Shown piece by piece: positions 34 through 58,553 of a stretch of DNA of 64,000 nucleotides (the stretch's first letter is position 1; each line of letters opens with the position of its first letter). The notes under the pieces are model-generated. The model worked only from the letters and a program-made list of their open reading frames with translations. It was not told the DNA's origin and ran no database searches. This stretch comes from Escherichia coli (lineage in GTDB: Bacteria; Pseudomonadota; Gammaproteobacteria; Enterobacterales; Enterobacteriaceae). The position numbers and the translations under genes were made by a program. The stretch lies in the NCBI RefSeq assembly GCF_041248615.1, contig NZ_CP158426.1; one strand, given 5' to 3'.

Positions 34-1512
34 ATGAGCTTACGTGAAAAAACCATCAGCGGCGCGAAGTGGTCGGCGATTGCCACGGTGATTATCATCG
101 GCCTCGGGCTGGTGCAGATGACCGTGCTGGCGCGGATTATCGACAACCACCAGTTCGGTTTGCTTACCGTGTCGCTGGTGATTATCGCGCTGGCAGATAC
201 GCTTTCTGACTTCGGTATCGCTAACTCGATTATTCAGCGAAAAGAAATCAGTCACCTTGAACTCACCACGTTGTACTGGCTGAACGTTGGGCTGGGGATC
301 GTGGTGTGCGTGGCGGTGTTTTTGTTGAGTGATCTCATCGGCGACGTGCTGAATAACCCGGACCTGGCACCGTTGATTAAAACATTGTCGCTGGCGTTTG
401 TGGTGATCCCCCACGGGCAACAGTTCCGCGCGTTGATGCAAAAAGAGCTGGAGTTCAACAAAATTGGCATGATCGAAACCAGCGCGGTGCTGGCGGGCTT
501 CACTTTTACAGTGGTTAGTGCCCATTTCTGGCCGCTGGCGATGACCGCGATCCTCGGTTATCTGGTCAATAGTGCGGTGAGAACGCTGCTGTTTGGCTAC
601 TTTGGCCGCAAAATTTATCGCCCCGGTCTGCATTTCTCGCTGGCGTCAGTGGCACCGAACTTACGTTTTGGTGCCTGGCTGACGGCGGACAGCATCATCA
701 ACTATCTCAACACCAACCTTTCAACGCTGGTGCTGGCGCGTATTCTCGGCGCGGGCGTGGCAGGGGGATACAACCTGGCGTACAACGTGGCCGTTGTGCC
801 GCCGATGAAGCTGAACCCAATCATCACCCGCGTGTTGTTTCCGGCATTTGCCAAAATTCAGGACGACACCGAAAAGCTGCGCGTTAACTTCTACAAGCTG
901 CTGTCGGTGGTGGGGATTATCAACTTTCCGGCGCTGCTCGGGCTGATGGTGGTGTCGAATAATTTTGTACCGCTGGTCTTTGGTGAGAAGTGGAACAGCA
1001 TTATTCCGGTGCTGCAATTGCTGTGTATTGTGGGTCTGCTGCGTTCGGTAGGTAACCCGATTGGTTCGCTGCTGATGGCGAAAGCGCGGGTCGATATCAG
1101 CTTTAAATTCAACGTATTCAAAACCTTTCTGTTTATTCCGGCGATTGTTATTGGTGGGCAGATGGCGGGCGCAATCGGCGTCACGCTTGGCTTCCTGCTG
1201 GTGCAGATTATCAACACCATTCTGAGCTATTTCGTGATGATTAAACCGGTGCTCGGTTCCAGTTATCGCCAGTACATCCTGAGTTTATGGCTGCCGTTTT
1301 ATCTCTCGCTGCCGACGCTGGTGGTCAGTTATGCGCTGGGCATTGTGCTGAAAGGGCAACTGGCGCTGGGGATGCTGCTGGCGGTGCAAATAGCCGCGGG
1401 CGTGCTGGCGTTTGTGGTGATGATTGTGCTGTCGCGCCATCCGCTGGTGGTGGAAGTGAAGCGTCAGTTTTGTCGCAGCGAAAAAATGAAAATGCTTTTA
1501 CGGGCGGGGTGA
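34..1512 (+). CDS. wzxC: Colanic acid exporter/flippase WzxC (polysaccharide transporter family)
   Basis: 492-aa multi-TM ORF; recognised sequence and position immediately before wcaK-wcaL-wcaM. Confidence 0.9.
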   Translation: MSLREKTISGAKWSAIATVIIIGLGLVQMTVLARIIDNHQFGLLTVSLVIIALADTLSDFGIANSIIQRKEISHLELTTLYWLNVGLGIVVCVAVFLLSDLIGDVLNNPDLAPLIKTLSLAFVVIPHGQQFRALMQKELEFNKIGMIETSAVLAGFTFTVVSAHFWPLAMTAILGYLVNSAVRTLLFGYFGRKIYRPGLHFSLASVAPNLRFGAWLTADSIINYLNTNLSTLVLARILGAGVAGGYNLAYNVAVVPPMKLNPIITRVLFPAFAKIQDDTEKLRVNFYKLLSVVGIINFPALLGLMVVSNNFVPLVFGEKWNSIIPVLQLLCIVGLLRSVGNPIGSLLMAKARVDISFKFNVFKTFLFIPAIVIGGQMAGAIGVTLGFLLVQIINTILSYFVMIKPVLGSSYRQYILSLWLPFYLSLPTLVVSYALGIVLKGQLALGMLLAVQIAAGVLAFVVMIVLSRHPLVVEVKRQFCRSEKMKMLLRAG

Positions 1513-6658: not shown

Positions 6659-6814
6659 TAAGTACAATAAAAACAGCATGTTAGCTTGCAATCATAGTTC
6701 AAATTTTTCCAGGATTTTCCTTGTTTCTACAGCTGTTTGGTAAGACAATTAGCGTTTGAATTTTTCGGATTTGGCACGAGTGGGTTACGCTCGTCACATC
6801 GTGGAAATGTACGC

Positions 6815-6853
6815 AGTACTCTGGTAGCTGTTAAGCCAGGGGCGGTAGCGTGC
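6815..6853 (+). promoter_or_regulatory. JUMPstart element with ops (RfaH-dependent antitermination) site upstream of the O-antigen operon
   Basis: agtactctggtagctgttaagccaggggcggtagcgtg; ops core GGCGGTAGCGTG at 6841-6852. Confidence 0.75.
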
Positions 6854-32294: not shown

Positions 32295-32333
32295 AATAAA
32301 AAAGCCCCCGGAAGGTGATCTTCCGGGGGCTTT
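32295..32333 (-). terminator. his operon attenuator terminator hairpin
   Basis: GC-rich inverted repeat agcccccggaag/cttccgggggct followed (minus strand) by a U-run; lies between hisL and hisG. Confidence 0.8.
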
Positions 32334-32394
32334 CTCATGCGTTCATGCACCACTGGAAGATCTGAATGTCTTCCAGCACACATCGCCTGAAAGA

Positions 32395-32445
32395 CTAGTC
32401 AGGATGATGGTGATGATGGTGGTGTTTAAATTGAACGCGTGTCAT
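32395..32445 (-). CDS. hisL: his operon leader peptide HisL (MTRVQFKHHHHHHHPD)
   Basis: Minus-strand reading atgacacgcgttcaatttaaacaccaccatcatcaccatcatcctgactag: seven consecutive His codons. Confidence 0.9.
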   Translation of the reverse strand: MTRVQFKHHHHHHHPD

Positions 32446-35112: not shown

Positions 35113-35198
35113 AGAAAAATTATTATGACAAGCCTCTCATTCTCTTGTCATTTCCCCCCCATTTAGGCACAATGCGCCGCTGTCAAAAAATGACTAAA

Positions 35199-35230
35199 AA
35201 CCGACGTTTCATCAGCGTCGGTTATTTTTT
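35199..35230 (+). terminator. Putative terminator after yeeY
   Basis: accgacg tttcatcag cgtcggt hairpin followed by tattttttg. Confidence 0.5.
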
Positions 35231-35372
35231 GCTTCAAACCAATCATTCATACCAAGAGGCCGGGCTTCGTACCGGATAGATATTTACTAAAAATCGACAG
35301 TTGTTGTCGCTGAGGAATCCAAAAAAATGGGGCAATTTTTTGCTTACGCGACGGTTATCACCGTAAAGGAGA

Positions 35373-43080: not shown

Positions 43081-43410
43081 ATGGAAACTACCAAGCCTTC
43101 ATTCCAGGACGTACTGGAATTTGTTCGTCTGTTCCGTCGTAAGAACAAACTGCAACGTGAAATTCAGGACGTTGAGAAAAAGATCCGTGACAACCAGAAG
43201 CGCGTCCTGCTGCTGGACAACCTGAGCGATTACATCAAGCCGGGGATGAGCGTTGAAGCAATCCAGGGCATCATCGCCAGCATGAAAGGTGACTATGAAG
43301 ATCGCGTTGACGATTACATCATCAAAAATGCCGAGCTCTCCAAAGAACGCCGCGATATCTCCAAAAAGCTGAAAGCTATGGGCGAAATGAAAAACGGCGA
43401 AGCGAAGTAA
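43081..43410 (+). CDS. yeeX: UPF0265 protein YeeX (DUF496)
   Basis: [30 protein letters not shown] recognised; 109 aa from internal Met of the 131-aa ORF. Confidence 0.88.
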
Positions 43411-43424
43411 TTCCTGTTTTATTC

Positions 43425-43451
43425 AATGAGGGTTGCCTGGCAACCCTCATT
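43425..43451 (+). terminator. Perfect palindrome between convergent yeeX and pduV (probable yeeX terminator)
   Basis: aatgagggttgcc t ggcaaccctcatt, 13-bp perfect arms. Confidence 0.55.
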
Positions 43452-43510
43452 GCTCATTGTTTCTTTTCTGTGTATCACCGTCATCATTCCCATCTGATAA
43501 CCTATTGAAA

Positions 43511-43954
43511 TTAGCGACAGCCTTCTTCTGTATGCAGCAAGGCAAAAAGTTCTGCAACTCCATTGTTATTAACCGCACTGGTTACTAACACATTGTGCGC
43601 TCCAGCTTCCCGTAACCAACTTTTCACCAAAGATATTTGTTCCATGCTGGCTAAATCTGCTTTGGTGACTACTCCAATGACCGGGCGATTCATTGACGAG
43701 GTAAAGCCTGGCGAAAAAGGGGACCACGGTGCGTCCGCATTAAGCACCAGGGCGATAATGTCCGCTTCGCAGGCGCTGACCAACAGAGCACTGTAGAGGC
43801 TGCGGTTTTCGAGGTATTCGCCTGGTGTATCAATGGTGGTCGGGGACCAGACGATTGCCTGCGTTTTCTGATAATGAATATTTTCGCCACGCAGACATTG
43901 CGTGAGTGACGTTTTTCCGCACTGGCTGGGGCCGATGAGCATCATACGTTGCAT
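43511..43954 (-). CDS. pduV: Propanediol utilisation GTPase PduV (EutP/PduV family)
   Basis: 147-aa ORF with P-loop [10 protein letters not shown]; last gene of pdu operon here. Confidence 0.85.
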
Positions 43955-56948: not shown

Positions 56949-57761
56949 TCAGATGTAGGAAGGGCGATCGTTTTTCGGTGTATCGCCGAGAGTCGAAAGC
57001 ACGGTTTTACCGATTTCGCGTGCGGAGATGACCGCCTGGCGGACTGCGCCGGAGTCACCCGAGATAATCAGAATGACTTCATTGCTGTAGCTGGTGCCTT
57101 GAGCGGGGGAGCTGTATGCCACAACATCCACATTGGCGGACTTCAGCGCGGTGTCTGCCATCAGAACACCCACAGCAGCCGGAGCGCCGACAATAACGCC
57201 GCAAGCCCGTCCCAATGGTGCACCAAACGCTTTTTCCAGTGCATAGCTGGCGCGGGCGGTATATTGCAGCTCAAGATGTCCGGCTTCGTTGGCATAGACA
57301 TCGCCAAAGGTTCGATCGAGTTCTTTCAGGGCAACTTCAATACCGCGTTTCACGTCGGAAACATCGTTGCCACCTAAGAGGATCAATGAGCCGTGTCCGG
57401 CACCGCCTTTAGTATCGCGAGGAAGTTCAATGCTAATAACTTCAGTGTTGGTGGCTTTTACCGCTTCATCAGCGGCCATAATGTGTGGACCTGCGCCAAT
57501 ACGCGCACCCAGAATGCCAATGGAACGATAGCGTTTTTCAAGTTTCATTGCGTCCAACAGGGCGCTATCAACGTTCGCAATGACCAGACCTACAGTGTCG
57601 CCAATAGCGGTGCCAACAAATTCTGTTAATGTGCAGCTTTTTTCTGCCATAGCCGTCTCTCGTATTTGATGAGTGGTTTTCGGGAGAACCTCATGCTCTG
57701 GCGTCGCTACGCGAGCGATGACCTGCGCCATGATCTGTTCGACCAGTTCATTGCTGCTCAT
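56949..57761 (-). CDS. pduB: Microcompartment shell protein PduB (tandem BMC trimer); internal in-frame start for PduB' at 57650
   Basis: 270-aa ORF; internal Met at codon 38 ([13 protein letters not shown]) matches the known PduB' start. Confidence 0.9.
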
Positions 57762-58042
57762 GGGTTAATTCCCTTTGGTAAGATTTTTTCGACATCGGTA
57801 TGTGGGCGGGGAATAACATGTACGGCTTTTACTTCGCCGACGTTACGCGCAGCTGCGGCACCTGCGTCTGTTGCCGCTTTTACCGCCCCGACATCACCAC
57901 GAACGATGACGGTCACCAGCCCGGAACCTATTTTTTCGTAGCCGACCAGCAAAACATTTGCCGACTTCACCATGGCGTCTGCGGCCTCTATGGCGGCAGT
58001 TAAGCCTTTGGTTTCTACCATTCCTAACGCTTCTTGTTGCAT
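57758..58042 (-). CDS. pduA: Major microcompartment shell protein PduA (BMC hexamer)
   Basis: 94-aa [33 protein letters not shown]. Confidence 0.92.
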
Positions 58043-58553
58043 AAAGACCTCGCCTGGATTTTTTTGACGATATGACTATAAAAAAAAGCGAGGAAAAAGA
58101 ATGGCTGACTTAATCGGCTAATGAGAAAAATTAATAGAGAACAAATATTATAAAATTGCTTTTATGAACTATATGTTGTTAATTTATTAGTTGTTTTGTG
58201 GATATTTCAATGTGAATTAATTGCGTTGGCTAGTGAGTTTAATCGCGAGTAATATTTCGTTGAGTTTAGTTCGAGGAAGGAACTGTGATATTTGTTTCAA
58301 TTTTATTATATCATGATGGCAATTTTTTATTGTGAAAGTTTGACAGTAATTATTACTTTCAACACTGATTAACGCTGTGTTGCATGATTCGGCAATGACA
58401 ATAATTTGTTATGTTAGCACGATTTTTACACGAGTCTGTCATGCATGTTGGCAATATTTTCTGCAGAGCAATTTTTTATAGTTGCGCTCGGTATACACAA
58501 CAATCAGCGCATAGTTGGCTGATAAAGAAAAACTCCGTAAAGAAGGTGTCACT
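58043..58553. promoter_or_regulatory. AT-rich divergent control region between pduA (minus) and pduF (plus); expected pdu and pduF-pocR promoters
   Basis: About 510 bp non-coding, strongly AT-rich with multiple A/T tracts; in the Salmonella pdu/cob regulon this region holds PocR-, Crp- and ArcA-responsive promoters. Confidence 0.55.

Follow-up and report, generated by a model that had tools for sequence, protein, structure and literature searches.

The divergent pduA-pduF spacer of an Escherichia coli pdu island as the probable orthologue of the central Salmonella cob/pdu control region

An association with adherent-invasive and other gut-adapted strains of Escherichia coli has been described for the pdu island, an accessory trait carried by about 12% of the complete genomes of the species. 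The copy considered here lies in a stretch of 64,000 nucleotides of contig NZ_CP158426.1 (assembly GCF_041248615.1), hereafter the window, in which a long gap separates pduA on the minus strand from pduF on the plus strand. The question that this locus raises is whether the gap is a functional divergent control region and, if so, where its promoters and the sites of its activator would lie. In Salmonella, the cob/pdu control region is described as containing the promoters Ppdu, P1, P2, Ppoc and Pcob (Chen et al. 1995, via PMC10433801 and PMC4245221). By sequence comparison, we regard the spacer of the window as the E. coli orthologue of this regulatory region, which was characterised in Salmonella in the 1990s; that it corresponds to the central part of the region and carries two mirror-image, activator-dependent sigma-70 promoters is, in our judgement, very probable.

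Boundaries, composition and conservation of the spacer

The position, composition and conservation of the spacer are matters of direct observation. It is bounded by the minus-strand ATG of pduA, which ends at 58042, and by the ATG of pduF, which begins at 58554, and the RefSeq annotation of a 100%-identical genome gives identical boundaries. The genes follow in the order pduV...pduB-pduA (minus strand), spacer, pduF, pocR, cobalamin riboswitch, an open reading frame of 145-168 aa without a Pfam match, cobU, cobS and cobT (Table 1), and the pdu reading frames, pduF and pocR are all intact in the window. As the preliminary description had it, the spacer is the longest non-coding stretch of the Pdu locus: the other gaps measure 481, 201, 133 and 100 bp, with less than 20 bp between genes within the operon, and the 481-bp gap, from pocR to the next reading frame, has the 175-nt riboswitch inside it. 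It is also AT-rich, as had been said, with a GC content of 0.32 against 0.47 for the whole window and values down to 0.29-0.33 over 200-bp segments.

The many A/T tracts that had been pointed out are real but go only mildly beyond what composition predicts, with 8 runs of at least five A/T against 4.9 +/- 1.7 in dinucleotide shuffles, 32 of 500 of which also reach 8. The short inverted repeats (perfect 6-nt arms, loop of at most 20 nt) are modestly enriched, at 14 against 5.1 +/- 2.8, a count that 1 of 300 shuffles reaches. By themselves, A/T tracts and inverted repeats are evidence of little force. A generic sigma-70 scan of the spacer returned two matches where 2.2 were expected, neither of them a TATAGT promoter of the kind discussed below; a terminator scan of the spacer found none, and Rfam gave no match to it at the gathering threshold or at a permissive one (E <= 1).

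A PocR scan of species-representative genomes yielded 80 loci, and the footprinting alignment covers 17 genera. The spacer is 509-531 bp long, with a GC content of 0.32-0.41, throughout the Enterobacteriaceae loci compared. Its 511 bases are 100% identical to those of many complete E. coli genomes, and it was found in 640 of 5,426 complete E. coli genomes, at an identity of at least 95% in 639 of them. Three other loci of the E. coli type (E. whittamii and two divergent E. coli) match it at 82-92%, and Salmonella, Citrobacter and Klebsiella at only about 55-60%, the 70 bp adjoining pduA being 80% identical to Salmonella. Since, within the E. coli type, the identity of the spacer (0.82-0.92) exceeds that at the four-fold degenerate sites of pduF and pocR (0.64-0.77), the spacer is under constraint, and the low identity to Salmonella is no sign of decay because the four-fold sites of the flanking genes are already saturated at that distance (0.40-0.58, against 0.55-0.60 for the spacer).

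Outside its conserved blocks, the spacer is at neutral saturation in the 17-genus footprinting. The invariant islands are the 70 bp adjoining pduA, TAAAATTGC at 58150-58158, the TGTGA at 58284-58288, GCAAT...T from 58319, CAA.A..TTG.TAT...CGATTTT at 58399-58426, GTTG.CAA...TTT at 58446-58460, TTTTTATAGT at 58473-58482 and the ribosome-binding region of pduF. The preliminary description had proposed an alignment with Salmonella, and in it both TATAGT hexamers and three 18-bp boxes are kept at corresponding positions, so that blocks of the promoter and operator kind do survive between the two. The likeness to the Salmonella cob/pdu region extends to the order pduA, spacer, pduF, pocR with its divergent pduA and pduF-pocR flanks, to the length of the spacer (511 bp here, 524 bp there), to the conserved pocR-proximal promoter region and to PocR itself, which is of the same family with an amino-acid identity of 86-91%.

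Table 1. Genes, proposed regulatory elements and conserved blocks in and around the pduA-pduF spacer, with positions in the window; negative numbers are relative to the predicted transcription starts
Feature	Position	Strand	Remarks
pduA	57758-58042	-	ORF, annotated PduA; 96-100% amino-acid identity to orthologues
pduA-pduF intergenic (putative control) region	58043-58553	.	511 bp, GC 0.32
Proposed -10 TATAGT of Ppdu	58075-58080	-	predicted start ~58068; 5' UTR ~26 nt
Core block GTCAGCCATTCTTTTTCCTCGC	58088-58110	-	~-42 to -20 of Ppdu; fully or almost invariant across the genera
Box S1 AGCAATTTTATAATATTT	58143-58160	-	16.3 bits; proposed proximal PocR site of Ppdu, -92 to -75
Box S1b CGCAATTAATTCACATTG	58208-58225	-	13.0 bits; weaker distal box facing pduA
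Weak sigma-70-like TTGGCT-18-TAATAT	58226-58255	+	read from sequence; below scan threshold
TGTGATATTTGTTTCA	58284-58299	+	its TGTGA invariant in 17/17 sequences
Box S2 GGCAATTTTTTATTGTGA	58318-58335	+	14.0 bits; proposed distal PocR site of the pduF promoter, ~-171 to -154
Box S3 GACAATAATTTGTTATGT	58397-58414	+	17.0 bits; proposed proximal PocR site of the pduF promoter, -92 to -75
CGATTTTT, accessory block after S3	58420-58427	+	conserved in the 17-genus alignment
GGCAATATTTT, degenerate box-like element	58450-58460	+	-39 to -29 of the pduF promoter; GCCAACAATTT elsewhere
Proposed -10 TATAGT of the PocR-dependent pduF-pocR promoter	58477-58482	+	predicted start ~58489; 5' UTR ~65 nt
Possible pduF-leader hairpin ATCAGC ... 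GCTGAT	58503-58523	+	RNAalifold, 6-bp stem
pduF Shine-Dalgarno region GAAGGTG	58542-58548	+	invariant AAGGTGTCA directly before ATG
pduF, propanediol diffusion facilitator	58554-59363	+	annotation; Pfam MIP, E = 1.8e-61
pocR, AraC-family activator	59566-60480	+	annotation and Pfam; presumed to act on the boxes
Cobalamin riboswitch	60572-60746		109 bits

Candidate PocR sites and the geometry of the promoters

A single 18-mer, with the consensus AGCAATATTTTGyTATTG, accounts for three of the conserved islands; in it, a conserved GCAA and a conserved TAT stand about 11.5 bp apart. A weight matrix built only from the pduA-pduF spacer boxes of 13 sequences that are not of the E. coli type finds five matches of at least 12 bits in the 511 bp of the window spacer, against 0.04 in dinucleotide shuffles (0 of 1,000 reaching the observed count), and one such match in the other 63.5 kb of the window, 12 kb of which have a GC content of 0.34. 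As the matrix was trained on orthologous positions, the matches in the window spacer show retention rather than independent discovery; the independent support for the boxes comes from the cob promoter and from the spacing in distant taxa, which lie outside the training positions and sequences. On the 3' side of pocR in the non-E. coli genera, the matrix finds a box of 21-23.5 bits 3 to 10 nt after the stop codon and a second copy of 14-22 bits 76 bp beyond the first (+79 after the pocR stop). Both of these cob-region boxes are present in Salmonella, Citrobacter, Klebsiella, Intestinirhabdus, Pluralibacter, Phytobacter and Kosakonia, and they are arranged likewise in a locus that matches S. Typhimurium primers. 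The equally A/T-rich pduF-pocR spacer has no box of 11 bits or more in the matrix scan. The simple pattern GCAATNTTTT has three of its four window matches in the spacer, with a total count not above chance.

Among the individual boxes, S2 (alignment column 295) and S3 are conserved in 17 of 17 sequences and S1 (column 119) in 16 of 17, and S1b reaches 9 bits only in the E. coli type, Phytobacter, Kosakonia and one other lineage. The core of S3 is palindromic, with a minus-strand match of 15.0 bits at 58393-58410, and it covaries as RCAA-N4-TTGY, GCAA being paired with TTGC and ACAA with TTGT. S2 lies 79 bp upstream of S3, which is comparable to the 76 bp between the cob-promoter boxes, and the accessory motif that follows S3 also occurs behind the first cob-promoter box, as AGCAATATTTTGCTATTGCCGATTTTT. 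Weaker box-like sequences follow the strong boxes at a distance of 20-22 bp and also overlap the -35 region, and it may be speculated that they provide extra PocR contacts.

What protein would bind the boxes is suggested by the gene that follows pduF. PocR has a PocR sensory domain, HTH_AraC and HTH_18 in Pfam, and the bipartite layout of GCAA and TAT, about 11.5 bp apart, would fit an AraC-family monomer with two helix-turn-helix motifs. PocR reportedly binds the Salmonella Pcob promoter. In gel shifts, MBP-PocR retards the whole upstream (intergenic) fragment of Salmonella pduA and not the upstream fragment of pocR (PMC10433801), and the distribution of the boxes, which are present in the cob region and missing from the pduF-pocR spacer, agrees with this result. 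From these comparisons, it is probable that the boxes are PocR sites.

The two TATAGT hexamers are each invariant across the alignment, that of Ppdu in 17 of 17 genera and that on the pduF side in 17 of 17 sequences, and they are mirror images within an 11-nt perfect inverted repeat (ACTATAAAAAA at 58075-58085 and TTTTTTATAGT at 58472-58482). On the pduA side, conservation drops abruptly after TATAGT and returns at the Shine-Dalgarno sequence, which is the pattern expected of a -10 element followed by a start site. The spacing, like the box counts, is directly observed: the strong box begins 78-80 bp before the hexamer in Ppdu, in the pduF promoter and in Pcob. Each of the two window promoters has exactly 80 bp, and for the S1 box the distance is 78-79 bp in Brenneria, Mangrovibacter and Tolumonas. 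In the distant spacers, which are 592-764 bp long (Yersinia, Hafnia, Brenneria, Mangrovibacter and others) and were not used for the matrix, a plus-strand box of 17-23 bits stands 79-80 bp before a TAnAGT, as the S3-type box of the four genera named does, and the minus-strand spacing is 78-79 bp wherever the hexamer is recognisable. In the TAnAGT, the positions T1, A2, A4 and T6 are kept at Ppdu, the pduF promoter and Pcob as well as in distant taxa, and each of the three promoters has a (G/A)CCA followed by a T-run at about -37 to -28; in Ppdu the GCCA lies within the core block, at 58105->58102 (-37 to -34). The matches to a -35 element at both window promoters are poor. On balance, these patterns lead us to take the TATAGT hexamers as -10 elements.

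Pcob of Salmonella offers a close parallel, having the same 18-bp box twice, oriented with transcription, and 78 bp from box to TAnAGT, in a comparison that draws on other genera, the window itself being without Pcob. Features of promoters of the AraC/XylS type are also present, namely a cognate regulator encoded nearby, a repeated bipartite box, a weak -35 region and the phasing of 78-80 bp. As for AraC at the I1-I2 half-sites of araBAD, there would be an AraC-family activator, a bipartite box in direct-repeat copies, weaker adjacent copies 20-22 bp downstream and a poor -35 region. Unlike at araBAD, a second strong box lies about 65-79 bp farther upstream. Two features speak against the arrangement proposed: counted from the predicted starts, the strongest box, at -92 to -75, lies farther upstream than the usual AraC-family site, which abuts the -35 region, and the degenerate boxes suggested closer to the promoter are weak.

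The interpretation that we favour can be set out as follows. Ppdu would read leftwards into pduA from the TATAGT at 58080->58075, and the second promoter rightwards into pduF-pocR from the other hexamer. Both would have a poor -35 region with (G)GCA/GCCA and a T-run, a strong box that begins 80 bp ahead of the hexamer (S1 at Ppdu, S3 at the pduF promoter) and a second box 65-79 bp farther out (S1b and S2, respectively). PocR together with 1,2-propanediol would occupy the boxes and turn the pdu operon on, and the pduF-pocR transcript would supply more PocR, i.e. autoinduction. Here PocR as the bound protein, the start sites and the direction of regulation are what we infer. The earlier expectation that the pdu promoter and the pduF-pocR promoter both lie in this spacer is supported by the conserved hexamers and boxes and by the published statement of PocR action at promoters ahead of both pduA and pduF (PMC10433801, citing Chen et al. 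1995). The established picture of the regulon is unchanged; what our comparison adds is a definition of the probable PocR box, an arrangement in which three promoters agree and an inventory of what the E. coli type has lost. An 18-bp PocR box at a fixed distance from the promoter, common to three promoters across Enterobacterales, is a testable proposal, and positions for promoters and activator sites should ease the design of reporters and the regulatory comparison with Salmonella.

Start sites, bound protein and other readings of the spacer

Each part of this interpretation has a competitor. A search of the accessible literature for mapped pduA start sites gave nothing usable, and the generic promoter scan, with its chance-level matches, also counsels caution about the predicted starts. 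In PMC10433801, the pduA RNA spans -44 to +38, begins with TTCTTATAGTCC and contains TATAGT, and the pocR RNA of the same study starts 7 nt after a conserved TGnTATTGT; as this is the start that the conserved -10 predicts, its authors may have used mapped starts. Should these 5' ends indeed be mapped starts, TATAGT would be transcribed as part of the pduA message and the -10 assignment of Ppdu would be wrong. The spacer would still be a divergent control region, with Ppdu about 44 or about 65 nt upstream of pduA and TATAGT in the 5' UTR, the invariant CCATTCTTTTTCCTCGC block would serve either as core promoter or, once transcribed, as an anti-Shine-Dalgarno element, and the boxes would move to about -75 to -58 or about -55 to -38, which are more usual positions for the AraC family. 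The cob leader points the same way: the TACAGT-based start of Pcob predicts a leader of 429 nt, and a leader of about 468 nt, which we take to be its length, would place the start some 35-40 nt upstream of that prediction and the second cob box at about -52 to -35. So does the core block, which holds a CCTCGC complementary to the Shine-Dalgarno sequence GCGAGG, although this pairing comes without covariation. Against starts so far upstream, the would-be -10 sequences are poor and unconserved (TTTCCT or nnTnAA), and the TATAGT or TAnAGT pattern recurs at three promoters at a fixed distance from the box, even in distant taxa; we give such starts a minor but appreciable chance. An anti-Shine-Dalgarno hairpin in the pduA leader, the relevance of which hinges on the start site, was dropped for the lack of covariation. 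As to the protein, the boxes might be bound by ArcA, IHF, Fis or another nucleoid protein, with PocR recognising another sequence of the spacer. Expression of pdu and cob in Salmonella depends on IHF and ArcA, the box itself is rich in A/T and in part a palindrome, and some of its variants contain TGTTA, the ArcA half-site. The scan for Crp, ArcA and IHF sites that the preliminary description had suggested nevertheless found no convincing site in the spacer, with no ArcA consensus at up to three mismatches and no exact IHF consensus WATCAANNNNTTR; moreover, the boxes co-occur exactly with the three PocR-dependent promoters and are missing from the equally A/T-rich region of the PocR-independent pocR promoter, and their bipartite form would suit PocR as described above. 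We therefore consider another binder unlikely and retain PocR as the candidate.

Two further readings would deny the spacer its role as a control region, or add to it. It could be a decaying relic of a pdu island that is cryptic in E. coli, the low identity to Salmonella reflecting relaxed constraint, and the loss of the central promoter of other genera with a 12-bp deletion, together with that of the cob promoter and the cbi genes, would fit such a history. This is very unlikely, however, given the intact genes, the greater conservation of the E. coli-type spacer than of four-fold degenerate sites, its retention at 95% identity or more in 639 genomes, and the fact that the boxes and both hexamers are kept in four diverged lineages of the E. 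coli type; for E. coli LF82, transcription and regulation of the pdu genes have been published. Least likely of all is that the spacer encodes a small RNA or a small protein, besides or instead of promoters. A 48-codon reading frame at 58411-58557 and the possible hairpin in the pduF leader could be taken as signs of one. The reading frame was rejected: its frame is not conserved, because a 1-nt indel in the T-run before TATAGT varies among the E. coli-type sequences. The hairpin is a weak possibility, having a single compensatory change (C-G to U-A) among the E. coli-type sequences, equivalent to one evolutionary event, and the Rfam search came back empty even at E <= 1.

The scans bear on one more conserved block. 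TGTGATATTTGTTTCA matches the Crp consensus with two mismatches, its right half being poor, and the window holds 23 matches of this quality against 27 expected by chance; it could equally be a Crp-like site or an extended -10 (TGtGATATT). It is the pduF-pocR spacer, instead, that holds one Crp-like and one ArcA-like site.

Elements missing from the E. coli-type island

The E. coli-type locus differs from that of Salmonella in more than the identity of its spacer. In nearly all other lineages, including Yersinia, Hafnia and Tolumonas, there is a central plus-strand element, (G/A)TGAC(A/G)-N15-16-TGnTAnnn, that resembles a -35 plus extended -10 promoter. Salmonella has two pduF promoters, one of which is PocR-independent, and we suspect that the central element is this second promoter. 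Neither the window nor the other E. coli-type loci possess this element, and they have the 12-bp deletion at this place; the weak TTGGCT-18-TAATAT lies near the site. The pduW and pduX genes are not annotated here.

A further change is downstream of pocR, where the cobalamin riboswitch, the reading frame without a Pfam match and cobU, cobS and cobT follow, so that the earlier remark that the strain lacks cbi holds. A cob promoter region of about 320 bp with its two boxes has been replaced by 87 unrelated bp, the best score of the box scan downstream of pocR in the window being at most 4 bits, and homology to the Salmonella cob leader is confined to the stretch from the riboswitch (window 60568) to the cbiA ATG. 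The decoupling of PocR from B12 synthesis that had been proposed is thus stronger than stated: the boxes of the cob promoter are lost as well, and it extends to the promoter itself. With its third target, the two-box cob promoter ahead of cbi, gone from the island, PocR would now control catabolism only. Of the regulon, the E. coli-type island retains the catabolic half and has lost the half for B12 synthesis, promoter included. Corrinoid salvage is not absent, since the riboswitch and cobUST remain.

A rewiring of the regulon could also be envisioned, where cbi, the cob promoter boxes and the central, PocR-independent pduF promoter were lost and the riboswitch-gated reading frame, possibly with cobUST, came to be transcribed by read-through from pduF-pocR. 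The riboswitch begins 87 bp after pocR and no plus-strand terminator-like site lies between the two, and read-through into the reading frame, possibly as far as cobUST, could therefore occur. A promoter-like match precedes cobU. We regard this scheme as rather unlikely; if true, corrinoid salvage would be coupled to the sensing of propanediol via one autoregulated transcript, without a dedicated promoter. The reading frame after the riboswitch was considered as a remnant of cbiA or cbiP and rejected, as the homology ends at the cbiA ATG and there is no Pfam match to it; it has a 36%-identical homologue in Hafnia.

The pocR-riboswitch interval and the downstream reading frame

The interval between pocR and the cobalamin riboswitch measures about 320 bp in Salmonella, Citrobacter and Klebsiella, and it contains the cob promoter with two strong copies of the box, the 18-bp inferred PocR site. 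By contrast, only about 90 bp run from the pocR stop to the riboswitch start in the window (60481-60571), and 87 unrelated bp take the place of the promoter and its boxes. Neither a box nor a plus-strand terminator-like site was found within this 87-bp segment.

The ORF that follows the riboswitch had no Pfam match; Hafnia paralvei (L050) has a homologue with 36% identity, also downstream of pocR. Of 5,426 E. coli genomes, 5,397 contain the 3' part of the ORF together with the stretch to cobU (from about 61231 or 61276). K-12 is one of them, and there it is annotated as 'cobalamin biosynthesis protein'; the complete riboswitch-ORF segment occurs in only about 643 genomes.

Candidate control elements in the two spacers

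Nearly all pduA-pduF spacers other than those of the E. coli type (the window's pdu locus and close relatives) share an invariant central element, even in distant Enterobacterales, that resembles a -35 and an extended -10, often with TTTACA 5' of it. In the spacer alignment A1, the E. coli-type spacers lack this element, as does one Citrobacter subgroup (L008, L010, L013).

In the pduF-pocR spacer, the conserved TGnTATTGT looks like a pocR-proximal promoter. The ArcA-consensus match, which sits a short distance 5' of the pocR start codon, is the only close one of the locus, and in other genera CGTGATCTGCTTTCACG stands in place of the window's Crp-like TTTGTGATCTGCTTTC. Global control may act at these sites and not in the pduA-pduF spacer. 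The STnc230 match overlaps both the terminator-like hairpin and TGnTATTGT.

Features of the window and of the spacer alignment
Feature	Position	Strand	Basis or remark
JUMPstart element	6814-6852		Rfam
Histidine operon leader	32296-32419		Rfam
STnc240	35158-35232		Rfam
pduV, last operon gene, adjoining tmaR	43511-43954	minus	RefSeq annotation of identical genome
Crp-like TTTGTGATCTGCTTTC	59405-59423		conserved; upstream of pocR-proximal promoter
STnc230 (enterobacterial sRNA)	59422-59505	minus	Rfam, 71 bits; antisense in pduF-pocR spacer
Terminator-like hairpin after pduF	59431-59458	plus	
ArcA-consensus match GTTAATTTATTGTTA	59537-59551	minus	2 mismatches
Cobalamin riboswitch	60572-60746		Rfam, 109 bits
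ORF 3' of riboswitch	60896/60965-61402		145-168 aa
Central element (G/A)TGAC(A/G)-N15-16-TGnTA	A1 columns 198-243		e.g. loci L084 (reverse strand), L012, L043-L050

Island types and the rest of the window

The pdu-cob locus of Escherichia sp. MOD1-EC7003 (L036) is Klebsiella-like and includes cob-promoter boxes; two island types are therefore in circulation within the genus. One MAG, 'Citrobacter sp. HRGM_Genome_0066' (L002 and L019), holds an E. coli-type and a Citrobacter-type locus together, the former with a spacer 97% identical to that of the window, and is probably carrying a mis-binned E. coli contig.

At the far end of the operon, neither pduW nor pduX is annotated in the identical RefSeq genome (window 43081-43954). 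PduX is a threonine kinase for B12 synthesis, and its absence would be consistent with de novo B12 synthesis having been lost. The stretch of GC 0.34 at about 7-19 kb, which looks like a surface-polysaccharide gene cluster, served solely as an A/T-rich control.
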